Assembly (NCBI GenBank): GCA_016432625.1
Contig: CP066697.1
Location: 392,409-456,408 of the forward strand
Reading direction: 5' to 3'
Origin: Candidatus Berkelbacteria bacterium
GTDB lineage: Bacteria; Patescibacteriota; UBA1384; 2-12-FULL-50-11
Length of the DNA: 64,000 nucleotides
Shown here: in pieces, positions 1 through 59,904 of the stretch
Layout: each line of letters starts with the position of its first letter
Position numbering within the stretch: position 1 is the first letter of the stretch
Notes under the pieces: model-generated
The model's database searches: none
Told to the model about the DNA's origin: nothing
Seen by the model: the letters and a program-made list of their open reading frames with translations, nothing else
Made by a program: the position numbers and the translations under genes

Positions 1-1035
1 TCTGACAGGAAGGATCGGGATAGCCGCCCGACGCGATAACGACGCAAACCGCGTAGCCACGTCGCCAGCTCGTCGCAAAGGACTCAACCCCACCCTCGAC
101 CGCCGAGTCGAACAGGTCAAAGAGGTCGCCGTTGTACGATCGAACGTAGGCCTGCGTCTCTGGATCACCGGGCCGGGCGTTACACTCCAAGGTTTTGATG
201 CCGTCCTCAGTGATCATTAGACCGGGGTAAAGACAGCCCACAAAAGGCGCTCCCAGGTCGGCCAGAGCCTTTAGAGCCGGCCCAACAATGCTTGAGCAAA
301 TGGGCTCGAGATCGTTGTACTTAAACCCAGGAACTGGGGTAACGCTACCCATGCCGCCGGTGTTTTCGCCACAGCCGCCTTCGTTGATCGTTTTATAGTC
401 TTTCGAAGGTGGGAAAAGAGTCGCGTGTCGACCATCGCAGATGGCATGAATCGAAACTTCCTCACCAATAAGAAAGTCCTCGACAACCACTGTGTCGCCA
501 GCGTCCCCATGGATTCGCTGGATCATGATCTTATTCAACGCGTCCTCGGCCTGAGCTGTTGTATGGCACGGATAAACTCCTTTGCCAAGCGCCAGGCCGC
601 TCGCTTTCACAACCAATGGCCCATTGCACTCACGAATGTATGAGAGCGCTTGATCGAACTGGCGGAAACTTCTGAAAGAGGCGGTTGGTATCCCCGCAGT
701 CTCCATCAATTGCTTCGCGAAGACTTTGGATGATTCGATTGCGGCTGCTCTCTGGGATGGTCCAAAGATCCGTAGGCCGCGACTCATAAAGACGTCAACG
801 ATCCCAGCCGCTAACGCATTGTCCGGTCCGACGACTGTCAGGCCGATATTGTTCTTCGCCGCAAAAACTGCAAGTTCGTCGATTGACAGGGCCGAGATCG
901 GCACGTTTTGGGCGATTTGGTCGGTGCCGGCGTTGCCGGGCGACACAAAGACTTGATTGACCTTGGGCGATTGACAGAGTTTCCACGCCAGCGCGTGCTC
1001 TCTGCCGCCGCTGCCGACGATTAGGATATTCTGTT
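1..1035 (-). CDS. purD: Phosphoribosylamine--glycine ligase (PurD), 5'-partial at the window edge; TTG start at 1035
   Basis: Manual minus-strand translation gives LKQNILIVGSGGREHALAWKL...PLVVKASGLALGKGV...ECNARPGDPETQ, the ATP-grasp PurD motifs. It is absent from the ORF track because it runs off the window edge. Confidence 0.75.
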
Positions 1036-1143
1036 TCAAGGCTTCCTCCGTTGTTAAGACTGCAACCCAACAACACAGCAACCTTAACGTATTTGTGGAC
1101 CTGGCGCGAGAACATTAGACACCTGTTAGCTTGATGCAACGCT

Positions 1144-1947
1144 CTAGCAGACTGCTTCACTCGCCGACGACTCACTATTATTGCTCAAGTAGGTATTAAG
1201 CTCGTTTAGAGTAGAACACACTTTGTTTTTCGGGGCTTGGTTTTGTCCACCAATCGACCAACCTCCTTCCGTACGTTCTATGTGATGCCATAAGACCTCT
1301 GCGTTCTTTCTCCACACCAAACAAGTCTGAAGCATAGACCCAACAGTCGGGTCTGGATTCTCGGTTATTTCGAAATATACAGTAGTTGCTAAGCTCCTGC
1401 CGAAGCCTCCAGGGTTGTTAACCTCTAGTTTTTCAGCTGGATGCAAACTACTTGCGTCATTTAATGACGCTATCTTATCTCTGTGTATATATGCACCCGA
1501 GCCTATAGAATCCCACTTTCGAGCAAGTGTATAGTTAGCTTCAAATTTCGGCGACCGAAGCGTGACTAGAAATGTTTTGGCCATGCCCGGTATACCATTA
1601 TCGGTAGAGGGGTAGGCCATTAGAATCTGTAAGGATGTGCTGCGTAACTTATCAGGAACGTTCTTTTTCTGCGCCTCCCACACCTCCCTTGCTGTCGAAT
1701 TCCATTTAACAACATATTCTGGATCCCAGCCGCAACCACTAGGAAGATGAGCAAGATAAAGCTTGAGGCTTTCTATCAGGGAGAATCCCAACAAAACATT
1801 TCCAGCAAAACCAGCGACGATACTACCGCTTATTGTATGGAGCTTCTGGAGGCAGTCAAAATAACGACCGTCTCGTAACGAAATGCGTGTATCCGACACA
1901 CCCACCGTGTATCCATACATAGTCGGAGTTGAAACTATCCATGTCAT
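1144..1947 (-). CDS. Proteasome-type N-terminal-nucleophile (Ntn) peptidase, HslV/Anbu-like, with a C-terminal extension
   Basis: N-terminus MT-WIVS...SIVAGFAG and SIGSGAY align with HslV TTIVSV...KVIAGFAG and AIGSGGPY. Thr follows Met, as in catalytic Thr1. 267 aa versus ~176 aa for HslV. Lies in a low-GC islet. Confidence 0.5.
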   Translation of the reverse strand: MTWIVSTPTMYGYTVGVSDTRISLRDGRYFDCLQKLHTISGSIVAGFAGNVLLGFSLIESLKLYLAHLPSGCGWDPEYVVKWNSTAREVWEAQKKNVPDKLRSTSLQILMAYPSTDNGIPGMAKTFLVTLRSPKFEANYTLARKWDSIGSGAYIHRDKIASLNDASSLHPAEKLEVNNPGGFGRSLATTVYFEITENPDPTVGSMLQTCLVWRKNAEVLWHHIERTEGGWSIGGQNQAPKNKVCSTLNELNTYLSNNSESSASEAVC

Positions 1948-2065
1948 CTCTCGCGCAAATGTAGCAACTATAATCAGCGATTACTAATCTGAGTGAGCCT
2001 TTGGTTTATCAATCGAGCTGCTTACATGACCTTTACGACGTGGTTTATAGCTGATCGACACACAA

Positions 2066-2575
2066 TCAAACGCCGTGTTCTTTTAGCAAATTCTTTAAAA
2101 AGCCCAGTGCTTCACTCTCAACTAGCTGCGGAGTGATTTCCTTAAGCGTATACTCGCCCCTTGAACCGGCATGGCCTCCATGTCCTTGTCCAATCGTTGA
2201 TTCATGGGACCAAATCTTCTTCGTTCTCCTATTAACACGGAAGCCAAAGCTTGGAACATCCCTGAAGCCATAATTTGGATCTCGTGGATCTTGAGCCTTT
2301 TTTAGCTCGATTTTCAAAGTAATACTTGGTTCTACGGGTAAGCTCTTAACAGAATCCCAGCCAGGATCGTCCTTTATGATATAGGCCTGGTGACCGCGTC
2401 CTTCAAGCTGCGATTTAAACTTATCCAGTGCCGGTTCGATTACTTCGTCTCTCGCTTGGACAAAATCCTGAATGAATTGATCTTCTTCGCTAACTTGAGC
2501 CTTGATCTCCTCGGCTCTCTGAGAGGTCTTGTCATCGTATTTGTCTAGTAGCTCGTCAAGTGAAGCATTGGCCAT
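2066..2575 (-). CDS. Hypothetical protein (169 aa), second gene of the low-GC islet
   Basis: Clean ORF with no recognisable motif; AT-rich like its neighbour. Confidence 0.45.
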   Translation of the reverse strand: MANASLDELLDKYDDKTSQRAEEIKAQVSEEDQFIQDFVQARDEVIEPALDKFKSQLEGRGHQAYIIKDDPGWDSVKSLPVEPSITLKIELKKAQDPRDPNYGFRDVPSFGFRVNRRTKKIWSHESTIGQGHGGHAGSRGEYTLKEITPQLVESEALGFLKNLLKEHGV

Positions 2576-2754
2576 GTGTGAGTTGTATCTGATTCACGAA
2601 AAACGGTCAAGGGTGTGTCCTAGTAGCTCGAAACCCAACGAGAATCTCACTCTATGTAGAACGCGCTTAATAGGTTGGAAGTGTTTTCCCTTATTGTGGA
2701 CCTGAGGGGAGTCGGACCCCTGATCCCTACAACGCGAATGATGAAATGTGGCTG

Positions 2755-2826
2755 TGGACCAGGCGGGAATTGAACCCGCTACTTCCTCAATGCGAATGAG
2801 GCGTTCTACCGATGAACTACTGGCCC
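2755..2826 (-). tRNA. tRNA-Ala (anticodon CGC)
   Basis: Reverse complement is GGGCCAGTAGTTCATCGGTAGAACGCCTCATTCGCATTGAGGAAGTAGCGGGTTCAATTCCCGCCTGGTCCA. Cloverleaf with G3:U70, a T-loop GGTTCAATTCC and anticodon loop TTCGCAT. CCA is not encoded. Confidence 0.8.
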
Positions 2827-2920
2827 TATTAATATGCTCTTCCGGGGCTCGAGCGTTGTAGGTATGCAACAGGCTCTCGCCCGCCGCAAAGGCTCGAACT
2901 AAAGCAGTTTAGTTCTCGCT

Positions 2921-2950
2921 GGCTCTGCGGCCCAGCTGAGCTAACGGCCC
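2921..2950 (-). other. tRNA-like 5' fragment (acceptor plus D-arm only), possible pseudo-tRNA
   Basis: Reverse complement GGGCCGTTAGCTCAGCTGGG..AGAGC is a canonical acceptor/D-arm, but no anticodon or T arm or matching 3' acceptor strand follows. The downstream 8-bp hairpin GAACTAAActgcTTTAGTTC is not anticodon-like. Confidence 0.25.
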
Positions 2951-3010
2951 TCGTTTCCAGCGCCCCTATCTTAACAGATGTGGGTTTCGAGAGTAAGATT
3001 GCTCCGAACA

Positions 3011-3613
3011 ATGTTTGTGCGCAAAATTGACGTTAATTTGCCAGATCAAAGCGTCATTGAGTACGCCGCCAAGTTGATTGATGGCGGCGGCGTTGTGGTT
3101 TTCCCAAGCGATTCCTGTTACGGACTGGCCGCTGACGCCACTAACAGATCGGCAGTCGAACGCCTCTACAAGATTAAGCAGCGCCCGTTCGATAAACAAA
3201 TTAGCTGCATATTCCGTGATCTCGAACAGATTGAGCAGTGGACTGTCGTAGGTAAATCCCAACGAAAAACCCTGGAACGAAACTTACCTGGCCCATTCAC
3301 CTTCGTCTTGCAGGCCAGAGTGGGCTGTCCGCTAGAAGGGGAGACTGTCGGTGTCAGAATTCCCGATAATTCCATTACCAGGGCCTTAGCGCACACCTTA
3401 GGCAAACCGTATACGGCGACGAGCGCGAACATAAGTGGGGAAGAGGTGACCTACGACCTTGACGAGATATTTCGTAATTTTGAGCGACAGATATATCAAC
3501 CTGACCTTATCCTAGACGCTGGCAAGTTGCCACAATACCCGACTTCAGCAGTAGTCGATATCCGTAAAAACCGCCCGGTCATCATTCGTGAAGGCGTCGC
3601 AAAAGTCAGGTAA
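3011..3613 (+). CDS. tsaC: L-threonylcarbamoyladenylate synthase (TsaC/YrdC/Sua5 family)
   Basis: VVVFPSDSCYGLAADATN, RPFDKQISCIF, VRIPDNSITRALAHTLGKPYTATSAN are YrdC-domain motifs. ATG at 3011 preferred over the upstream ORF start. Confidence 0.8.
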   Translation: MFVRKIDVNLPDQSVIEYAAKLIDGGGVVVFPSDSCYGLAADATNRSAVERLYKIKQRPFDKQISCIFRDLEQIEQWTVVGKSQRKTLERNLPGPFTFVLQARVGCPLEGETVGVRIPDNSITRALAHTLGKPYTATSANISGEEVTYDLDEIFRNFERQIYQPDLILDAGKLPQYPTSAVVDIRKNRPVIIREGVAKVR

Positions 3614-3660
3614 AGTACCTGAAATTTCTCCATATATCTGATAAAATTTACAAGTGATTT

Positions 3661-3743
3661 GCCGAAGTGGCGGAACGGTATACGCGGAGGTCTCAAAAAC
3701 CTCTGGGAGCAATCCCTTGTGGGTTCAAGTCCCACCTTCGGTA
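3661..3743 (+). tRNA. tRNA-Leu (anticodon CAA), type II with long variable arm
   Basis: GCCGAAGTGGCGGAACGGTA...GAGGTCTCAAAAACCTC...TGGGTTCAAGTCCCACCTTCGGTA. Anticodon loop CTCAAAA, T-loop GGTTCAAGTCC. Confidence 0.8.
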
Positions 3744-3747
3744 CAGC

Positions 3748-4476
3748 ATGCCTATTAAACAAGTTACCTTCAACGAGGAAGACATTCGCAAGATTTTCGA
3801 ATCAGAGACTGCTGGTAAAAAATTCAAGCGCCTTTTTATCCGTACAACGCGCCAGATACTCGCGCTTGGGTTCTTGTTTGTTTTTTTCTTTACCCTTATT
3901 AACTTCGGCGCTTTTTGGACCAAACTAAAGTATTCTATTGCCGCCCCAACCGAAACTACGCAGTCCGTACCAATTGAGCCACCAAAACCCGTTGTTAATT
4001 ACGCTCCGGAGTTAATCATCCCCAGCATCAACATAACTGCTCCGATAGCGTTGAACATCCAGCCTAGCCAGGTTGTAGAGCAATTACGTAACGGAGTCGT
4101 CCATTACGCTGACACCGCGCTTCCAGGCGAGATTGGCAATGCGGTTATCATCGGCCACTCATCTGACTACCCATGGAGTGTCGGAAATTATAAGAATATC
4201 TTTGCCCTTCTAGACAAACTTGTAATCGGGGACAAAATCACCGTTCCTTACGGCTCACAGCGTTTTGTATACGAGGTAACCGAATCCAAAATCGTTAAGC
4301 CATCAGATTTATCGCCGCTTAAGAAAAGTGACGCACCAAAACTGACGCTCATAACCTGCTATCCCGTTGGTACGTCGCAGAAGCGTTTGGTTATTTCCGC
4401 CAAGCTCATTGAAGGCGAGCCAACGGGCTATCAACTATCTGAGCCGTTTTTGGAAGAATTACCGCGCGCCCGTTAG
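3748..4476 (+). CDS. Sortase-family transpeptidase
   Basis: N-terminal TM segment. NAVIIGHSS (His) and the catalytic-Cys motif LTLITCYP (TLxTC). Start set at the first ATG after tRNA-Leu. Confidence 0.7.
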   Translation: MPIKQVTFNEEDIRKIFESETAGKKFKRLFIRTTRQILALGFLFVFFFTLINFGAFWTKLKYSIAAPTETTQSVPIEPPKPVVNYAPELIIPSINITAPIALNIQPSQVVEQLRNGVVHYADTALPGEIGNAVIIGHSSDYPWSVGNYKNIFALLDKLVIGDKITVPYGSQRFVYEVTESKIVKPSDLSPLKKSDAPKLTLITCYPVGTSQKRLVISAKLIEGEPTGYQLSEPFLEELPRAR

Positions 4477-5174
4477 ATCTGCGGCTTGTCGAGTTCTAAC
4501 TTGTGAACCACGCCGCCTTCTTCGATGAGTATTTCCCAGGACGACGCTCGAAGCATGATACGCGCCGGCATCTCTTCAGCCAAATTATAAATAAGATAAT
4601 CCTGCGGTCCTTCGGGGAAAAATAATCGTATTTCGTCTCTGATCTGGTAGATGTAGCCGGGCCCAAAGCGACGAGCTTGCGTTGGTTGGGTGACAAATCG
4701 GCTAACAAGTGCGTTGTAATCAAGCAGTTCGCCGCTCTCGCTAAGGCTTAAGCCGGTGTCAAAATACGGCTCCACTGTCATTTCGAAGTCTTCAACGATG
4801 GTACCTTTTGGATGAACTGCAACTAGGCGAAAATCTTTTATCAAACCCACCTCCGCTGCTGAGAGTTCAAAGCGCTGCCGCCAATCCTGGAACCCCTCTT
4901 TTTGTAGTAGAACCTCGTAGTTACCCGGCAAAACGCCACGTTTTTGATACGGCACTTCGCGGGCAATTAATTCCCCGTTTAGATAAAGTGAGACGCCGAT
5001 ATACTCCTGTTTGCTTTCAACGGCGACGACAACCGTCTGCTCAAATCGCTTGGTTTCGGGGTTAAAGCGTAGGCCGTTGGCCCAGACAACTGCGATCGAC
5101 GAAAGAATGAAGAATGATGCAACGGCAAGGGCGCCAGCAAGGAAGGTTAGCATCTGACGTCGTTTACGACTCAT
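4473..5174 (-). CDS. Membrane-anchored hypothetical protein, PEGA-like domain
   Basis: N-terminal TM helix. LPGNYEVLLQKEGFQDWRQ resembles the PEGA motif. Confidence 0.4.
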   Translation of the reverse strand: MSRKRRQMLTFLAGALAVASFFILSSIAVVWANGLRFNPETKRFEQTVVVAVESKQEYIGVSLYLNGELIAREVPYQKRGVLPGNYEVLLQKEGFQDWRQRFELSAAEVGLIKDFRLVAVHPKGTIVEDFEMTVEPYFDTGLSLSESGELLDYNALVSRFVTQPTQARRFGPGYIYQIRDEIRLFFPEGPQDYLIYNLAEEMPARIMLRASSWEILIEEGGVVHKLELDKPQI

Positions 5175-5306
5175 GGTCTTACAATGATATCGCCAAAAAG
5201 GTTGGCGGGCTATGGGCGCGTCGTTGAATAATACTTGGGAATTGCTAAGATACCCGAGAATAGTAATCTCTAGATTCGGAGCAAACTCATAATCCGACGA
5301 ATTGGC

Positions 5307-6296
5307 GTGGATCTGGGCACAACCAACATCTTAATCTTCGTGCCTGGCCGTGGCATCGTCATTGATGAACCAGCCGTTGCCGCTATCGACGCTTTTGATA
5401 ATAAGATTGTCGCGTTCGGTGAAGAAGCCCGCAAAATGCTCGGCAAAACTCCAGATTCGATTATCGCGGCTCGTCCGCTGAAAGACGGAGTAATCGCTAG
5501 CTTCAAGATTACCGAGGCAATGTTGCGCTACTTTATTAACCGACTCAGCGGCCGTCTACGTCTATTTCGCCCGGATATTATGGTCGCAGTGCCCGTTGGG
5601 GCCACTTCCACAGAGCGTCGAGCAGTAACGGATGCCTGTATCGCCGCCGGTGCTAAGAACGCTTTTTTAATCAAAGAACCGGTTGCCGCGGCCTTGGGCG
5701 CCAACGTTCCTATCGCCGCTGCTGAGGGACATCTTATAATCGATATCGGCGGCGGGACAACCGAAGTAGCTGTGATTTCGCTTGGCGATGTCGTCGCGGC
5801 GACTTCAGTTAGAGTTGGGGGTAATCGAATTGACGAGGCCATCGCGAGTTTCATCCGTAAAAAGTACTCCTTAATTATCGGCGAGCAGACCGCCGAGGAT
5901 CTGAAAGTACGTATCGGAACGGCGATGCCGCTCAAAAAAGAAATGACTCATGAGCTCTCCGGTACTAACTCGGTTACTGGTTTGCCGGAATCGGTTTTAG
6001 TCAATTCAACAGACGTTATGACCGCGTGCCAAGAGGAACTTAAAGAAATAATCGGTGCTGTTAAAGCCGTTCTGCAGAAGACCCCACCTGAGCTTGCGGC
6101 TGATATCATGGATAAAGGAATGATCATGACCGGCGGGGGATCACTACTTCGCAACTTGGACCAGCTATTCACTAAAGTCACTGGTGTGCCGTGCCAGCTT
6201 GCTGAAGACCCACGACTCTGCGTCGTCAAAGGCACTGGAATTGCCGTCGAGCACCTAGACGAATTCCGCCGCTCCGTTCTGTGGGCCAAACGCTAA
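5307..6296 (+). CDS. mreB: Rod shape-determining protein MreB (actin-like ATPase), GTG start
   Basis: IGVDLGTTNILIF, DIGGGTTEVAVIS, MTGGGSLLRNLD are actin-fold phosphate and adenosine motifs. Confidence 0.9.
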   Translation: MDLGTTNILIFVPGRGIVIDEPAVAAIDAFDNKIVAFGEEARKMLGKTPDSIIAARPLKDGVIASFKITEAMLRYFINRLSGRLRLFRPDIMVAVPVGATSTERRAVTDACIAAGAKNAFLIKEPVAAALGANVPIAAAEGHLIIDIGGGTTEVAVISLGDVVAATSVRVGGNRIDEAIASFIRKKYSLIIGEQTAEDLKVRIGTAMPLKKEMTHELSGTNSVTGLPESVLVNSTDVMTACQEELKEIIGAVKAVLQKTPPELAADIMDKGMIMTGGGSLLRNLDQLFTKVTGVPCQLAEDPRLCVVKGTGIAVEHLDEFRRSVLWAKR

Positions 6297-8004: not shown

Positions 8005-8713
8005 CTTCGTACAAATTCTTGGTGTTCGTGTCGATAATATGACCTGGAAGGCTGTCGACAGTTTCGCCCTAAAAGCCCTTTCTGGGAACGAGCCTAATCA
8101 GATTGTTACCGTGAACGGCGAGCATATTCTGGCGGCAAGCAATAATGGGCGACATCGAGACGTTATTAATAATGCCGATGTGGTCGTTCCTGATGCCACA
8201 AATGTTGTTCTGGTAAGTAGGCTCAAAGGAAGAGGTTTGCACCAAACTATTCCAGGTGTTGATTTGGTTTTATGGCTTGCCAAGACCGCCGCCGAAACTA
8301 ACCACACCGTTTTCTTACTTGGGGGCGGCACTGATATTGCGAAAGTTGCAGCGAGCAAATTGCAGAGCATTTTTCCTGGACTTAAAATATCCGGTACCAG
8401 TAGCGCCGATCCTGACGAGTTGGAGGTTATTAAGGAAATTCGTGACGCCTCCTCCGATATTGTTTTCGTTGCTTATGGCGCCCCGAAGCAGGAATATTGG
8501 ATCGCTGAACATAAGGCAGCGACCGGCGCTAAAATTTTGGTCGGAGTTGGCGGGACGTTCGATATGCTATCAGGCGTTTTGCCCCGAGCACCAAAACTAA
8601 TGCGATCACTGCACTTAGAGTGGTTATGGCGCCTTATCATCCAACCAAGCCGAATTGGTCGAATTTGGAACGCGGTTATTGTCTTTCCCTTTAAAGCCCT
8701 TACTACAAAATAG
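7991..8713 (+). CDS. WecB/TagA/CpsF-family glycosyltransferase
   Basis: Begins MWQPDFVQILGVRVDNMTWKAV, the TagA/WecG N-terminal pattern. ATG at 7991 is in frame with the track ORF and overlaps the GT4 stop. Confidence 0.75.
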   Translation: MWQPDFVQILGVRVDNMTWKAVDSFALKALSGNEPNQIVTVNGEHILAASNNGRHRDVINNADVVVPDATNVVLVSRLKGRGLHQTIPGVDLVLWLAKTAAETNHTVFLLGGGTDIAKVAASKLQSIFPGLKISGTSSADPDELEVIKEIRDASSDIVFVAYGAPKQEYWIAEHKAATGAKILVGVGGTFDMLSGVLPRAPKLMRSLHLEWLWRLIIQPSRIGRIWNAVIVFPFKALTTK

Positions 8714-8750
8714 CAATTGCATTACCGCGCTGCTTGCGATAAGATGTATT

Positions 8751-8821: not shown

Positions 8822-10114
8822 ATGGCCATTTCACCCTTCGCTGCAGCAATCAACCAATTAGCCGATGAGCGTGGTTTACCACGTGAAACTGTCGTGGACT
8901 CAATTCAGGCCGCTGTCGCTGCTGCTTATCGTAAAGAATACGGTCATCAAGAGCAGGAAGTACGTGCCGAGCTTAACGAGGAATCCGGAAAATTTCACGT
9001 ATTCCAGCAATTCGAAGTAGTTGAGCCAGGCGAAGAGGGGATCGAGAACATTCACGCCCAGTTGACCGAGGAAGACGCTCAGAAGATTAAGAAAGGCGCC
9101 AAAGTCGGTGAAATTGTCGAGATCGAGCTTGAGCCACACGAAGAGTTCGGGCGAATTGCCGCTATGACCGCTAAACAGGTTATCTCTCAACGCCTACGTG
9201 AAGCAGAGAAGGAAATTCTCTTTGCCGAATATAAGGATAAGGAAGGCCAACTAATTAACGGTTACGTTCAGCAAGTCGAGGGTCCAAACGTTATTCTTAA
9301 TATCGGCAAACTAAACGGTCTAATGATCGCGTCCGATCAAATCCCAAATCAAAACTATTTCCCGGGCCAGCGACTTAAAGTTTTGGTCTACACCGTTGAG
9401 GAAACCGCCCGCGGACCTCGTGTTCTCGTGACTCGCTCAAGTGCTGATTTCATTAAGAAACTTTTCGAACTAGAGGTTCCAGAGATCGCCGCAGGTTCCG
9501 TTGAAATTAAAACCATCGCCCGTGAAGCAGGTACTCGTACTAAAATGGCCGTCATCTCCACTCAACCAGGGCTTGACCCAGTCGGCTCCTGCGTGGGCCA
9601 GCGCGGTACTCGTGTCCAAGCAGTATTAAGCGAGCTTGGCGACGAGAAGATCGACATCATCCCATTTATAGATTCTGATGAGGAGATGATTATCAACGCT
9701 TTGTCTCCAGCAAAAGTGGAAAAAATCATTTTGAAGAAGAAGGCGAAAATTGCCGCGGTCGTTGTCCCTGAAGATCAGTTGTCGCTAGCCATCGGTAAAA
9801 ACGGCCAGAACGTCCGTTTAGCCAGTAAGCTGACCGGTTGGGAAATCGACATCGTCAAAACAGACGGGACTAAAGCTAGTGCCAAGAAACCTGTCGAAGA
9901 CGCGGCAGAGCTAATCGAAAAATCTGAAGAACACACCGAAGAAGAAGCGAAACAACTTGCCGACGCTGCCGTTGATATGCCCCAAGCCGAGACGGCTGAA
10001 GTGGTTAGCGAGCCAGAAACAACCATCGCTCCTACTGATGCGCCTGCTGAGACGCCTTCGGAAACGACCGAGGAGCAGAGCGAAACCTCTGCCTCAGACA
10101 CCGAAGAAAAGTAA
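8822..10114 (+). CDS. nusA: Transcription termination/antitermination factor NusA with an acidic C-terminal tail
   Basis: VTRSSADFIKKLFELEVPEI, DPVGSCVGQRGTRVQAV, AIGKNGQNVRLASKLTGWEIDI (S1 plus KH domains). AAGGAG RBS 10 nt upstream. Confidence 0.9.
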   Translation: MAISPFAAAINQLADERGLPRETVVDSIQAAVAAAYRKEYGHQEQEVRAELNEESGKFHVFQQFEVVEPGEEGIENIHAQLTEEDAQKIKKGAKVGEIVEIELEPHEEFGRIAAMTAKQVISQRLREAEKEILFAEYKDKEGQLINGYVQQVEGPNVILNIGKLNGLMIASDQIPNQNYFPGQRLKVLVYTVEETARGPRVLVTRSSADFIKKLFELEVPEIAAGSVEIKTIAREAGTRTKMAVISTQPGLDPVGSCVGQRGTRVQAVLSELGDEKIDIIPFIDSDEEMIINALSPAKVEKIILKKKAKIAAVVVPEDQLSLAIGKNGQNVRLASKLTGWEIDIVKTDGTKASAKKPVEDAAELIEKSEEHTEEEAKQLADAAVDMPQAETAEVVSEPETTIAPTDAPAETPSETTEEQSETSASDTEEK

Positions 10115-55656: not shown

Positions 55657-56049
55657 TTAATCCTTCAGGATTTTGGGGATTTCCGATTGCGGTACTTTAC
55701 GAACTTCAATCTTGGCCTTTCCCTGTGAACTAGCCTTCATCAAACGGTGCAGACCATCCAAAATCAGCCAACGCCCCCGCCAGTGCATGATGTCAATTGG
55801 ATGCGATAGATCAGCCTTCTGCGTCCGGTCGTACTCGCCTTGGTATTTTTTAGGGTTTTTCAACACTTCATCGGGCTTCAGGTTGTAATATCCATCCGGC
55901 TTCGTCCACAGAAATGGAACGTCGAAATGCCAAACTAACTCGTCTATATCCATTTCTTCGACTGGAAGATCGAGTGCCCAGACTTTCTTTTCGTCCCAGT
56001 CAAAATCAAACCCAACTTCTTTAATAATTTTCGGTGGTTGCCTGCTCAT
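55657..56049 (-). CDS. ParB/sulfiredoxin-fold (ParB-N-like) domain protein, hypothetical
   Basis: RWLILDGLHRLMKA resembles the ParB-N DGxHR motif. Confidence 0.35.
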   Translation of the reverse strand: MSRQPPKIIKEVGFDFDWDEKKVWALDLPVEEMDIDELVWHFDVPFLWTKPDGYYNLKPDEVLKNPKKYQGEYDRTQKADLSHPIDIMHWRGRWLILDGLHRLMKASSQGKAKIEVRKVPQSEIPKILKD

Positions 56050-56507
56050 CAGTCACCCACAACGCCGCCCATAAAACGGGCTTCGTAAACTAAACCGTCC
56101 TTGAAATGTATCTGCTCCATACCATCAAAGCGCTCAACACTTCCTTCGGTTTTGTTACTGTATCGCCAGTCACCTTCTACTAACAATCCCGGTCCCCTGA
56201 AAGGTCTATCTTCGGGCATCTTCATTAGAGCTCGTTTCAGGAATCCATAAAGCTCGCCAACATTGACGTCGCTATCGAGCGGGTAGCCGTAGTACGTCAT
56301 TATCCAAATCGGCACGTTTTTTAGCGATACGATATCGCGGCCGCCAAATTTCACTCCGCCGACCCAACTGTCGTGGAATCTCCAGTCGCCACGTTCGTAG
56401 ATAATCGTTTCCGAGTTGTCAGAATTTTTTAGAATCTTTGTGGATTCATTTCCATAACCATTCTTATTGGCCTCAAGCAAAAATACCCGGAGTTCTTCGA
56501 TGTTCAT
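56049..56507 (-). CDS. Hypothetical protein (152 aa)
   Basis: Operonic with ATGA-type junctions. No motif. Confidence 0.35.
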   Translation of the reverse strand: MNIEELRVFLLEANKNGYGNESTKILKNSDNSETIIYERGDWRFHDSWVGGVKFGGRDIVSLKNVPIWIMTYYGYPLDSDVNVGELYGFLKRALMKMPEDRPFRGPGLLVEGDWRYSNKTEGSVERFDGMEQIHFKDGLVYEARFMGGVVGD

Positions 56508-57043
56508 AATGACTCAAAATTTATCGCGTTTTTTACACTCTCTGTTTCTTCCGGCGTCAGTAGCCTCGTTATTTTCGCTACTTCCTCGGGGTCTGGCAAT
56601 CCAATCCCAGAACCGTTTTCACGGGTATATAACGTAACGTGTGTTGGCTGGTTGAGAAAATCCATCCCGAGTGCTTGACGCATACCGTCGAAAAATTCCT
56701 GCAAGTTTTTTGCTTGGCACATCACGACGACAGTCTTCTTGTCCCGCTCTTCAGCCAATCGGAACTCGTCTTTGAACTGTTCAATTGAAATCGGAAACTG
56801 TTTTAACAATCGACTAGCTTCTTCTAAAATCGTCTGCTCGGCGTCCTCTTCCGAAACACCTTTAAGCTGAGCCATTTCTGGCGCGTACTTTTTGACACAA
56901 AAAATACTCATATGGAATTCCGATTTTTTAACTAATGTTTCGCCATCAATTTCTAATGTCGACGCAATTAGAGGCGTCTCATAAGGCAAGCCCACATAGC
57001 CCCCTGCATAACGGTATCCAGCAAGAAGGTTCTCGCTAGCCAT
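56504..57043 (-). CDS. 2H phosphoesterase superfamily protein (LigT/2'-5' RNA ligase-like)
   Basis: Two H-x-T/S-x motifs: FHMSIF and THVTLY. Confidence 0.5.
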   Translation of the reverse strand: MASENLLAGYRYAGGYVGLPYETPLIASTLEIDGETLVKKSEFHMSIFCVKKYAPEMAQLKGVSEEDAEQTILEEASRLLKQFPISIEQFKDEFRLAEERDKKTVVVMCQAKNLQEFFDGMRQALGMDFLNQPTHVTLYTRENGSGIGLPDPEEVAKITRLLTPEETESVKNAINFESL

Positions 57044-57572
57044 TTAAGTAACCTTTTAGATTCGTAGCCGCAATATTGCGCATACTAAAAGAATTCTTCT
57101 CCTCTTGACCCATTTCGGCGAATGTTTTGTCACGGCCATCTGGACAAAAAATTGGGTCCCAGCCAAAACCTGTCTCGCCGCGCGGCGCAACGATTGTCCC
57201 TTCAATCACTCCTTCAAAATACTCAATCTTGCCACCTTCCGAAGCGTAGCCGATAATCGTTTTGGCTTGAGCTTTGGCGTTGCCGAGTTTCGTAGCAATT
57301 TCGGCCAAACCGTCATTGCCAACAGTTTTCAAAAACCATTTAATCAAAGGTCCGGGTAAACCCTTCAAACAATCGAGATAAAGCGAAGTATCTTCGACAA
57401 TAAATCCGGCTTTTTTATGTTTTAGAGCTTCTTCTAATTTTGCTTTAATTATTTCGTGCGCATCGATGTTTTGAATCTCCGGCAGGTCAATGTCCATTTG
57501 TTCAACGTCGGGAATAATAGATTTAATTTCTGCAAATTTATTGGCGCTGCCTGTAATGAAAAATAAGGCCAT
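57036..57572 (-). CDS. rdgB: Non-canonical purine NTP pyrophosphatase (RdgB/HAM1)
   Basis: FFITGSANKFAE, EDTSL, GFGWDPIF. Start set at MALFFITGS. Confidence 0.75.
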   Translation of the reverse strand: MALFFITGSANKFAEIKSIIPDVEQMDIDLPEIQNIDAHEIIKAKLEEALKHKKAGFIVEDTSLYLDCLKGLPGPLIKWFLKTVGNDGLAEIATKLGNAKAQAKTIIGYASEGGKIEYFEGVIEGTIVAPRGETGFGWDPIFCPDGRDKTFAEMGQEEKNSFSMRNIAATNLKGYLNG

Positions 57573-57991
57573 CAAAACTCCGTTAGCTCTATAAGCGTTT
57601 CGGGTGTAGTGCTGTAGTCGCGGTACCTCAACCATTCGGGGGTAACTTTAAAATATCTGGTTTCAGGAATATCGAAGAACTTACTTGCTCCCGGGTTCTT
57701 TTTGACAAAAATATTTTTCAGCTCCTCCATCTCTTCACCATCAACTTCCGTCGCTACCCCTTCGTACTGGACCGTAGCGTCCTCCCAGCCAATGACCACC
57801 GCAACGTTAGGATTGGCCTTGAGGTTTGGGTATTTGCGATAGGTTGAGAACGTATCAAAGATCAGCTCGAAGTTGTCAGTTTCGGCAAACTCAATCGCGG
57901 CAGCTTCGGGTTTGCCTGTCTTTGACGAAGTAGCCAAGACACAAACTTGATGACGCTTTATAAACTCCAGAATCTCTATTTTTGTTTTCAT
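57572..57991 (-). CDS. Pyridoxamine-5'-phosphate-oxidase-like FMN-binding split-barrel protein
   Basis: CVLATSSKTGKPEAAAIEF...VAVVIGWED is the PNPOx-fold pattern. Confidence 0.6.
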   Translation of the reverse strand: MKTKIEILEFIKRHQVCVLATSSKTGKPEAAAIEFAETDNFELIFDTFSTYRKYPNLKANPNVAVVIGWEDATVQYEGVATEVDGEEMEELKNIFVKKNPGASKFFDIPETRYFKVTPEWLRYRDYSTTPETLIELTEF

Positions 57992-58005
57992 TTTCCAAAT
58001 TTATT

Positions 58006-58728
58006 TCACGAAGCAAGCTCTTTGAGCTGGGTAGGTATCCCAGACTTATTACCAATTTTTTGAGATAGGTTAATCATTATTTTTTGCAGCACATCGCTTA
58101 CCATCACCAGTTCCTCTTTACTAATAACTACCTGGTCACTATGAGCGGCTGCAATACGTTTTGCATATATCTCCCGCAGTTTCTCTTGGTTGAAGACTTT
58201 ATATTTATCCTGAATATCTTGTGTGAATAGTGAGAAATCAAAAAATTCTTTTTGGCTTATACCAAGCACGTGCTCGTAGTCTTGCAACCTACTCTTCAAG
58301 TCTTTTTTTGAAAACACCTTTAGATAATTTGTTACGAGTGAGAGGAGAGGTTCGGTTGGAGAAGAATGTCTTAATGCAACCTCCATACTGTCCTCCAGGA
58401 ATGCATCGAATATGCCGCACATCATTACTAGGCTGTAATTATAAACCCATGAGAGGTAGCGAGCAGCTTTATTAAGGTTTGTAAAATATTGCTCTTCTAT
58501 CTTTGCGTACATCCTATCTATATCATCCTCAGTAGGAGGCTTCAGAAACATTTTTGGGTTAGAGAGGATCTCTTTTGTCGTCTCTCGCAGCTCGTCGGTC
58601 ATTTCTTTAGCTATGCACATTTGCGCGTGTGGGGTTAACGCATGATTTTCTACGCGATTGACAAACTGGTAACATTCTACAATCCTTTTAATGTAATCTA
58701 ATTCTTTAAGCATAGGGTCGCAAGACAA
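58006..58728 (-). CDS. Hypothetical protein (240 aa), AT-rich, possible HEPN-like Rx4H motif
   Basis: No clear family. KRIAAAHSD contains R-x4-H. Lower GC than its neighbours. Confidence 0.3.
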   Translation of the reverse strand: MSCDPMLKELDYIKRIVECYQFVNRVENHALTPHAQMCIAKEMTDELRETTKEILSNPKMFLKPPTEDDIDRMYAKIEEQYFTNLNKAARYLSWVYNYSLVMMCGIFDAFLEDSMEVALRHSSPTEPLLSLVTNYLKVFSKKDLKSRLQDYEHVLGISQKEFFDFSLFTQDIQDKYKVFNQEKLREIYAKRIAAAHSDQVVISKEELVMVSDVLQKIMINLSQKIGNKSGIPTQLKELAS

Positions 58729-58778
58729 AAAGCCCCGCGGTGAGGCGGGTACTTTTTGTGTTCATTCTTTGAATTCTC

Positions 58779-59168
58779 TTACTTTAGTTCGACAGTCGCG
58801 CCGGCTTCTTCGAGACGTTTCTTGGCAGCTTCGGCGTCGTCTTTCTTCATCATGCCGAGCTCCTTAGGAGCGGCATCGACGAGGTCTTTAGCTTCCTTCA
58901 GCCCAAGCTCCTGTTTGATTTCGCGAACAGCCTTAATGACCGCGATCTTTTGATCGCCGGAAGCAGCGAGTACGACATTGTACTCAGATTTTTCTTCAGC
59001 GGCCTCAGAACCAGCGGCGGCACCAGCGGCTGCGGGTGCGGCGCCAGCAGCCATAACTGGCATGGCGGAAACGCCGAACTTCTCTTCGACGGCCTTCACT
59101 AATTCGGACAGTTCCATTACCGACAATTCGGCGATCTGGTCAATCAATTTGTCTGTTTTATCACTCAT
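58779..59168 (-). CDS. rplL: 50S ribosomal protein L7/L12
   Basis: Ala-rich hinge. C-terminal domain [11 protein letters not shown]...[10 protein letters not shown]. Confidence 0.9.
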
Positions 59169-59904
59169 TATTCTCCTTTACTTCTTCCTTATTATTAACT
59201 TCTTCATCCTGAGCGGAGTCGAAGGATTCTTTTTCTTCTTTAATCTCACTTTCTTCTGTGGATACTTCTGCATTTTCTTCGCTAGTTTGTGCAGGAGTCT
59301 CTACAGTTTCAGTTTCTTCTTTTGGTTGCCCTGATTCAGCATTAGCTGCTTCTGTAACTTCTGTTTTTGCTTCCTCCACAACTGGCGAAGCCGGTTGTGA
59401 ACTCTTAACTGCCTCGACCACAAAAGCAAATTTCTGCATCGGATAATTCAAAGAATATGCTAGCGATCCGATTAAACCGCCAAGGCGGCCGACCAACTGT
59501 GCTTGAAGAGTCTCTTTGTTTGGCAGTGAAGCCAGTGTTTTGACTTGGGAGGCATCGAAGAAACTACCATCGATCCAGCCCCCTAAAACTTCCAGCGCTT
59601 CGGTTTCTTTACCGAATTCAACCAAAGTTTTAGCGGCAGTTACTTCATCTTGGAAACCGTAAGCTAAGGCCAAGGTTTTTTCAGGGATGTCAATCTCTCG
59701 CCCCAGGCGCTTTAAAATTAGGCGCAGCAGGTTGTTGGAAAGCATTTTGATCTTGCCGTTTTGCTCGAAAGTTTTAGTGCGCAGTTCGTCGTTAGCTTTC
59801 ATATTAAGCTTGGTGTAGGCAACGATCAGGGCGACACGTGACTCCTGCAGGTCGGTGACCAGCGATTCAACTAAAGCTTCTTTTTGGGCTCTCACCAGTG
59901 GCAT
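59161..59904 (-). CDS. rplJ: 50S ribosomal protein L10 with a ~70-aa acidic C-terminal extension
   Basis: [42 protein letters not shown]. Overlaps rplL. Confidence 0.8.

Follow-up and report, generated by a model that had tools for sequence, protein, structure and literature searches.

What placed two genes between purD and a tRNA-Ala(CGC) gene in a Candidatus Berkelbacteria genome, amid repeated copies of the tRNA 3' end, and which of these copies marks the edges of the inserted DNA? We addressed this question in a stretch of 64,000 nt from a Candidatus Berkelbacteria metagenome-assembled genome (hereafter the window), reading the locus on the minus strand. In that direction the gene order is Sua5/YrdC (divergent, on the plus strand), tRNA-Ala(CGC), open reading frame 2 (ORF2), ORF1 and purD. 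tRNA genes are classic landing sites of mobile DNA, and remnants that lack an integrase are common. The islet made up of ORF1 and ORF2 most likely represents an ordinary case of a mobile element decayed to a remnant, in a locus that has been rearranged several times. For its arrival we favor, at a probability of roughly 0.6, a conservative site-specific recombination event that integrated the element at the 3' end of a previous tRNA-Ala(CGC) gene, with subsequent loss of the integrase; we infer both a tRNA-targeting recombinase as the agent and the order of events. The features of the islet and of its tRNA end are the following:

1093–1110, minus strand: copy 1, the purD-proximal, attR-like repeat of a tRNA-Ala 3' end (pattern match and repeat family).
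1144–1947, minus strand: ORF1, 267 aa, a predicted orphan proteasome-beta/HslV-like N-terminal nucleophile (Ntn) hydrolase (homologs, profile and model).
2066–2575, minus strand: ORF2, 169 aa, member of an uncharacterised family of proteins of ~160–180 aa (homolog search).
2694–2740, minus strand: copy 2, the 3' half of an older tRNA-Ala(CGC), about positions 30–73 (44 nt of tRNA) plus the trailer CAA (sequence read and aligned).
2741–2754, minus strand: short spacer from the end of the functional tRNA to copy 2.
2755–2826, minus strand: functional tRNA-Ala(CGC), here called type A (Rfam, 66.3 bits; ARAGORN).

The initial annotation of this DNA had reported a 13-mer that occurs three times, and this was borne out: the pattern TGTGGACCWGRSG has exactly three matches in the window, all on one strand (1094–1106, 2695–2707 and 2753–2765), and none in 100 dinucleotide-preserving shuffles. 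A repeat search lengthened the family to 18 nt, at 1093–1110 (TTGTGGACCTGGCGCGAG), 2694–2711 (TTGTGGACCTGAGGGGAG) and 2752–2769 (CTGTGGACCAGGCGGGAA). Since the tRNA-Ala(CGC) gene lies at 2755–2826 on the minus strand, the third copy is its 3' end. In the tRNA sense this end reads ...CCCGCCTGGTCC-A-CAG, that is, ...GGTCC-A and then CAG, so CCA is not encoded. Copy 1 reads ...CTCGCGCCAGGTCCACAA in the same sense and lies 54 nt upstream of the purD start codon. It agrees with the tRNA end at 12 of 13 positions on the same strand; the chance expectation for such a match to the terminal 13-mer of the tRNA within 1.75 kb is ~0.001. Of the 18 nt of copy 1, 15 agree with copy 2 and 14 with the functional tRNA. 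Copies 1 and 2 both read CAGGTCCACAA in the tRNA sense, and their first 11 nt are identical, including the 3 nt past the tRNA end; the corresponding stretch of the functional tRNA is CTGGTCCACAG. Outside the 8-mer that they share, 7 or more identities in 10 between copies 1 and 2 have a probability of 0.0035. Because copies 1 and 2 are identical over 11 nt where the functional tRNA differs, the true repeat pair bracketing ORF1 and ORF2, judged on sequence, is copy 2 plus copy 1, and not the functional tRNA.

Copy 2, originally described as a short 13-mer 58 bp from the tRNA, proved to be considerably more than that. From 2740 to 2694 it reads CATTCGCGTTGTAGGGATCAGGGGTCCGACTCCCCTCAGGTCCACAA in the tRNA sense and comprises an anticodon loop (TTCGCGT, with the anticodon CGC), the 3' strand of the anticodon stem, the variable loop, a T arm (AGGGG/CCCCT), the acceptor strand CAGGTCC and the discriminator A; its last 18 nt (2694–2711) are the attL-like partner of copy 1. 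In the functional tRNA the acceptor stem is GGGCCAG/CTGGTCC, with a G3:U70 pair, and the T stem is GCGGG/CCCGC; the T-stem differences between the two are compensatory. Models of the tRNA-like domain of transfer-messenger RNA also match the T arm and acceptor of copy 2 (E = 3.5e-4). The CAGGTCC of copies 1 and 2 pairs with GGGCCTG, the 5' end of the tRNA-Ala(CGC) on L173, a contig of the closest relative, and not with the present GGGCCAG; we therefore take copy 2 to derive from an older tRNA-Ala(CGC) gene, of which it is the 3' half.

In copy 1 the core is preceded by 7 nt, TCGCGCC, that are nearer to the T stem of a different tRNA-Ala (TCCCGCC) than to that of copy 2 (TCCCCTC). Copy 1 has the look of a hybrid, as would be expected of a P-O-B' junction or an element-derived arm. 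The 64 nt upstream of copy 1 in the tRNA sense are weakly similar to tRNA positions 12–32 (empirical p = 0.018). That copy 1 might terminate a decayed tRNA of almost full length was considered and rejected, given the weak similarity and the lack of a T arm; it is a hint only. Two weak inverted repeats (1122–1148 with 2847–2873, 27 nt, 70% complementary; 2723–2735 with 2853–2865, 13 nt, 92% complementary) overlap self-complementary tRNA-like sequence. As to signs of an insertion sequence or a miniature inverted-repeat transposable element, there is no transposase in the islet.

To compare the locus with its relatives, we used contigs that were found with Sua5 as the anchor and are syntenic with the window (L173 to L181). 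Sua5 is 89% identical to that of the window in L173, 71% in L174, L175 and L176, 68% in L177, and 61% in L178 and L179 as well as in L181, and tRNA-Ala(CGC) adjoins Sua5 in every syntenic relative contig. purD was also tried as the anchor and given up: it finds nothing closer than 54% identity in GTDB genomes and 58% in JGI metagenomes (range 44–58%), and the loci of the Candidate Phyla Radiation (CPR) found through it, among those checked, have no conserved tRNA neighbor, with the sole exception of the contig that later became L175. The comparison that the initial annotation had proposed came out in its favor: in L174, L175 and L176, purD starts 113 bp after the 3' end of tRNA-Ala(CGC), without ORF1 and ORF2. 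The purD of L174 and L175 is 58% identical to that of the window. A tblastn search found neither ORF1 nor ORF2 in the syntenic loci of five relatives (L173, L174, L177, L178 and L181). In L177 the tRNA is followed by a 90-aa ORF and other genes, with no purD; in L178 and L179, pgi lies 41 bp after the tRNA; and in L181 two unrelated genes converge on it. The two genes appear to be a gain of this genome; at the least, none of the syntenic relatives examined has them.

The edges of the insertion can be placed by blastn against L174. Window positions 432–1091 correspond to L174 9150–9805 (purD and its leader), and 2932–3617 to L174 9923–10607 (Sua5 and its promoter box, plus 19 nt at the 5' end of the L174 tRNA). 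The breakpoints are therefore at 1091/1092, 2 nt before copy 1, and at 2931/2932, and between them the window has 1840 bp (1092–2931) against 117 bp in L174. This genome-specific segment takes in the functional tRNA and ~105 nt upstream of it. The islet had been drawn smaller, from 1094 to 2765 with the functional tRNA as one of its repeats, and neither the ends nor that repeat assignment can be kept: the pair consists of copies 1 and 2, and the segment runs from 1092 to 2931. The remaining features of the locus are:

2827–2921, minus strand: genome-specific DNA upstream of the tRNA.
2922–2950, minus strand: 5' relic (acceptor strand and D arm) of an L174-type tRNA-Ala, 29 nt, GGGCCGTTAGCTCAGCTGGGCCGCAGAGC.
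2966–2999: conserved promoter-like box of Sua5.
3011–3613, plus strand: Sua5/YrdC (threonylcarbamoyl-AMP synthase), the conserved flank and synteny anchor.
2–1039, minus strand: purD, first 346 codons, continuing beyond the window (Pfam GARS_N and GARS_A); a flanking host gene, complete in L001, with the start codon TTG at 1039.

Site-specific integration would account for this arrangement as follows. ORF1 and ORF2 (1107–2693) would be cargo of an integrative element (either a small one, or a larger one of which this is the last piece) that entered the 3' end of a tRNA-Ala(CGC) gene then adjoining purD. The crossover would have taken place in or near CAGGTCCACAA, made up of the 3' strand of the acceptor stem, the discriminator base and the 3 nt after it, so that this stretch would have been duplicated: copy 2 would be attL (3' half of the resident tRNA, core, islet) and copy 1 attR (islet, core, purD leader). 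The recombinase gene would later have been lost, which would have fixed the islet in place. In a separate event, a complete type-A tRNA-Ala(CGC) with a short spacer would have overwritten the 5' ~29 nt of the older tRNA; this would explain both the 58 bp from the end of the functional tRNA to copy 2 and the fact that this tRNA has no more than a near-copy of the repeat. The 5' relic at 2922–2950 would be older still.

Much of this resembles the tyrosine-integrase islands catalogued by Islander and TIGER (Williams 2002; PMC4383910), in which an intact tRNA stands at one end and a 3' fragment in the same orientation at the other. In the Islander collection (Hudson et al. 2015, PMC4383910) regenerated tDNA and a displaced fragment mark the island ends, tandem arrays occur, and 5' fragments were found in only 159 of 3919 islands. 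Here an intact tRNA-Ala(CGC) stands at one end, though of another sequence type than the partner of copy 1; copy 1 is the displaced fragment in direct orientation at the other; the cargo is foreign and missing from a relative's locus; and the site has been reused, with several fragments, like tandem arrays. The empty site is present in L174, L175 and L176, though this comparator is distant and has a 12-nt repeat of its own. Unlike such islands, the islet holds no tyrosine integrase gene and is only 1.6 kb and two genes long, its att partner is the relic 3' half of an older tRNA-Ala instead of the functional tRNA, and relics of tRNA 5' ends are found on the opposite side as well. Fragments of tRNA genes left by integration are pervasive, and partial tRNA genes mark old integrations (van der Gulik et al. 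2023, PMC9897764); the partial genes seen here would mark old integrations in the same way and, like those, could fool tRNA finders. The islet differs from the examples of that paper, which flank elements of 9–23 kb or larger, in nesting at least three types of one isoacceptor.

Several observations weigh against integration as we propose it. The comparator L174, the nearest relative whose contig covers the whole locus, is distant, as the Sua5 (71%) and purD (58%) identities show, and it repeats the 3' end of its own tRNA at 12 of 12 positions, 31 nt past the tRNA and just upstream of the purD leader (9825–9836, GTGGACCGTATC on the plus strand; chance expectation ~7e-6). Because this "empty" locus has its own repeat near the same place, copy 1 could predate the islet. 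The contig of the closest relative, L173, ends inside tRNA-Ala and leaves its downstream arrangement unseen. Within the population itself, all three other contigs (Logan contigs of three sequencing runs) show 100% identity with the window over the locus, and presence/absence polymorphism was not seen. At 1.6 kb the islet is far below typical island size, and its non-coding gaps are at most 119 bp. As had been stated initially, no integrase is left: neither an integrase nor an excisionase or other recombinase was found in the islet or in ~9 kb on either side (called genes, PF00589). IMG/VR, queried with the T arm and acceptor of copy 2, the 3' end of the present tRNA, ORF1 and ORF2, has no matching attP element, by att sequences or by either protein, and signs of a prophage or phage satellite were likewise missing, with no PHROG match below E = 0.097 and no IMG/VR match. 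Composition points both ways. The DNA between the repeats had been called visibly AT-richer, and its guanine-plus-cytosine (GC) content is indeed lower: 1107–2694 has 45.2% GC, compared with a mean of 49.3% (standard deviation 2.5) for sliding windows of equal length, which puts it at the 5th percentile. GC at third codon positions (GC3) is 0.43–0.44 in ORF1 and ORF2 and ~0.50–0.55 in most genes, and is undercut by only two genes, both in a low-GC stretch at 57–60 kb. The tetranucleotide distance is unremarkable, however, with 10% of windows as deviant (p ~0.10). Codon usage splits the pair: synonymous codon use of ORF1 is low (z = -2.05, second lowest when ranked with 37 window genes), but that of ORF2 is ordinary (z = +0.35). 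The compositional contrast of the islet is modest.

Positions 55800–59900, adjoining ribosomal protein L10, are the lowest in GC (down to 41%) and the most tetranucleotide-deviant part of the window; they encode a DUF5680 protein, a Ham1-family NTP pyrophosphatase, a 179-aa protein without a family and a 240-aa protein with a weak, sub-threshold RiboL-PSP HEPN match. This could be another acquired patch.

The history of the tRNA gene bears on how far integration alone can explain the locus. The functional tRNA is identical to that of L177 at 72 of 73 positions and ~94.5% identical to that of L181, and is unlike those of L173 and L174; from the former it differs in the acceptor and anticodon stems, despite the 89% identity of Sua5. 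Since the tRNA of the window matches L177 (Sua5 68%) but not L173 (Sua5 89%), the tRNA type does not follow Sua5 relatedness, and the sequences suggest that the tRNA gene itself may have been replaced horizontally. Upstream of it, 2827–2921 has no Rfam family and no blastn homology to the relatives. This stretch contains a hairpin, GAACTAAA-CTGC-TTTAGTTC, and at 2866–2876 a degenerate tRNA 5' fragment, GAGCCTGTTGC, that aligns with 5' units of L173 and L177. In the adjacent relic (2922–2950), the first 15 nt match the 5' end of the L174 tRNA at 15 of 15 positions, and the remainder is a D arm with a 4-nt insertion. The relic keeps the ancestral distance to the Sua5 promoter box, equal to that of the real tRNA in L174, L178 and L181. 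In all, at least three sequence types of one isoacceptor are nested around the locus, and the tRNA gene here has been replaced or extended more than once. We also considered GAGCCTGTTGC...CCTACA (2853–2876) as the 5' half of the copy 2 tRNA, split off by the present tRNA. This was largely rejected, because L173 and L177 have sequence alignable with this stretch in their repeated 5' units and because its complementarity to copy 2 runs 4 nt into the would-be anticodon loop.

Units of this kind between the tRNA 5' end and the Sua5 promoter box are seen in the window (2827–2950), in L173 (46–115) and in L177 (9739–9919), and none are present in L174, L178 and L181. Each extra unit has the first 11–15 nt of tRNA-Ala and then a hairpin and an A/T-rich stretch. 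The window has two of them (one of a foreign tRNA type), L173 has one, and L177 has a 55-bp tandem repeat in 3.3 copies. They could be a duplicated promoter and tRNA 5' end, or scars of integration on the 5' side.

Relics are also found downstream of the tRNA in a relative. In L177 a 32-nt fragment of a different tRNA-Ala type begins 13 nt after the tRNA (9639–9666), and a further 40-nt 3' fragment lies 0.9 kb on (8701–8740), the two bracketing the 90-aa ORF. A layout of tRNA, spacer of 12–31 nt and old 3' fragment of 12–32 nt is common to the window, L174 and L177, and such similar layouts, compared as sequences, indicate recurrent events at this site in separate lineages. Given the variable content and the relics in the window and its relatives, we regard the interval from Sua5/tRNA-Ala to pgi as a recurrent, multi-event hotspot and not as a single clean scar. 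Of the integration scar at tRNA-Ala first proposed, the insertion and the direct repeats have held up and the att partners and boundaries have been redrawn; recombination itself we infer.

Could the same arrangement have arisen without a recombinase? The block 1092–2931 may have come in, in one or more steps, from other Berkelbacteria, through recombination, either homologous or homology-facilitated illegitimate, that used conserved parts of tRNA-Ala (5' end, anticodon loop and 3' end) as anchors, with the tRNA fragments as overwriting debris. That the segment includes the functional tRNA and ends inside the 5' relic of the resident one fits this well, as do a tRNA type at odds with phylogeny, the absence of a recombinase, and the layout common to the window, L174 and L177, which simple att duplication does not give. 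The bracketing pair is more difficult to explain in this way: identity over 11 nt that include 3 non-tRNA nt is predicted by conservative site-specific recombination and not by independent decay of debris, and all fragments are direct with respect to the tRNA, as in islands made by integrases. This is the main rival, and we regard it as a tentative possibility. A further reading has the tRNA-Ala(CGC) next to Sua5 overwritten again and again by arriving DNA, each time with a complete tRNA-Ala(CGC) of its own, and with cargo such as ORF1 and ORF2 riding along. If so, relics would accumulate event by event, with a 5' piece of the previous gene left toward Sua5 and a 3' piece toward purD, and the locus would exemplify a self-replacing "tRNA cassette" mobility without a recognisable integrase, nested in the window and in parallel in L174, L177 and L173. 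We consider this unlikely.

Two further explanations would dispense with the arrival of an element. In one, ORF1 and ORF2 are ancestral and the relatives lost both by deletion between direct repeats, giving the arrangement of L174, which does keep one copy of the tRNA 3' end near the same place upstream of purD, as recombination between repeats would leave. Yet L174, L177, L178 and L181 all lack both genes and differ in what lies between tRNA-Ala and pgi, so that several independent losses would be required. The homologs of ORF1 and ORF2 are rare and scattered over unrelated contexts, the GC3 of both is below that of neighboring genes, and the L174 copy, which matches its own tRNA even at T-stem bases that are unlike the window copies, is not simply the ortholog of copy 1; we regard ancestral presence as very unlikely. 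In the other, the repeats are functional RNA or DNA signals, for example processing or regulatory elements in a read-through transcript from tRNA to purD. This would explain why both the window and L174, whose tRNAs differ, have the 3' end of their own tRNA copied just upstream of the purD leader, but we find it barely credible: Rfam shows no family or conserved structure over copy 1, the spacing to purD is 54 nt in the window and 70 nt in L174, purD is absent from L177, L178 and L181, copy 2 is plainly a tRNA half, and the copies are identical, not complementary, to the tRNA 3' end.

Turning to the cargo of the proposed element, ORF1 and ORF2 are real genes with homologs, and both are intact. 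The islet had been called a decayed remnant, which fits the missing integrase and not the genes; with both of them intact, decay hit the mobility machinery and not the cargo. They are not a conserved gene pair: this was rejected because the two never co-occur in homolog loci.

ORF1 is one of a family of 27 or more proteins, 258–291 aa in length. It matched no Pfam (E <= 0.1), NCBIfam (E <= 0.01), PHROG or PADLOC family, recombinase families included, and so falls outside the curated families in question, Pfam Proteasome (PF00227) and the NCBIfam HslV model. The family keeps an N-terminal M-T-W-I-V, D19, K35, G49 and a G-S-G at 149–151; in an alignment of 25 sequences, M1, T2 and W3 are at least 90% conserved and D19, K35, G49, G149 and G151 are invariant. 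We take these residues, mapped by position only, to resemble the Thr1/Asp17/Lys33/Gly47/Ser129 constellation of proteasome-type Ntn hydrolases. The family profile, when searched against the PDB, matches HslV (E = 2.4e-4). An AlphaFold2 model of ORF1 (predicted local distance difference test score, pLDDT, 87.8; predicted template modeling score, pTM, 0.88) retrieves 20S beta subunits in Foldseek (E ~2e-8, probability 1.0, target-normalised TM score 0.58–0.75). In this model ORF1 has the alpha-beta-beta-alpha Ntn fold of proteasome beta subunits, and its putative catalytic constellation appears intact. The public gene call (P0001, 258 aa) begins only at Met10 and would cost the protein its conserved N-terminus, including the putative catalytic Thr; the ATG at 1947 is therefore the better start.

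The genomic contexts of ORF1 homologs are unrelated to each other: inside a nuo cluster, after an alpha-2-macroglobulin gene, ~5 kb from a phage integrase and beside dnaG. Many orphan proteasome homologs are known, some of them spread by phages, and two groups, PPH and AAH, are patchy and associated with mobile DNA (Fuchs et al. 2021, PMC8665760). ORF1 is like the orphan homologs described there (HslV, BPH, Anbu and PPH/AAH/RPC/DPH) in its proteasome-beta fold, with a Thr directly after the Met, and in its conserved Asp, Lys, Gly and G-S-G, and like PPH and AAH in a patchy distribution associated with mobile DNA. It is unlike them in matching no Pfam or NCBIfam family, in a C-terminal extension of ~60 aa, in that many members of its family end in Cys, and in the absence of an adjacent partner ATPase gene; ORF1 is likened to these proteins by description and is not assigned to any of the named groups.

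ORF2 is identical to the NCBI protein HZB70_00665 and belongs to a family with 300 cluster representatives at E <= 1e-3, in which the motif HESTIGQGHGGHAGSRG is conserved. It matched no PHROG, PADLOC, Pfam or NCBIfam family. In the predicted structure (model pLDDT 84) a long N-terminal helix leads into a beta sheet, and the model has no fold match in the PDB. In L004 (152–2489) the closest homolog lies directly downstream of an AbiLi/AbiLii abortive-infection pair, a hint that the ORF2 family may be associated with defence islands.

Finally, the variability of the region extends beyond the islet, and the entire interval from tRNA-Ala(CGC) to pgi is variable. purD itself is patchy, being found in the window and L174 and absent from L177, L178 and L181, and the genes between purD and pgi vary as well (a GDSL lipase and a 414-aa gene, versus a 418-aa and a 430-aa gene). 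The GC content of the purD region, 53–60%, is above the window mean. The 5' leader of purD (window 1040–1090; L174 9755–9805) is conserved though the purD proteins are only 58% identical; the elements common to both are TACGYTAAGGTKGC ... TTAACA-CGGAGG, with hairpin potential. It matches no Rfam family and may be a regulatory leader. Elsewhere in L178, positions 503–5944, between DUF378 and iPGM, hold a serine resolvase gene and several small unannotated ORFs beside tRNA-Ala(GGC), and this looks like a second tRNA-associated variable spot in the lineage.

As an islet, the locus is routine and of a well-known kind. To our knowledge, the mobile elements of CPR genomes are poorly described, and this locus documents scars that point to tRNA-targeted integration, together with a variable hotspot, in a very small CPR genome. 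It also exposes a trap for annotation: the present tRNA is not always the att partner, and relic halves of an isoacceptor can mislead both island callers and tRNA annotation. The more interesting leads are the nested tRNA-Ala(CGC) relics on both sides of the gene and, in the cargo gene ORF1, an unclassified family of predicted proteasome-like Ntn hydrolases.

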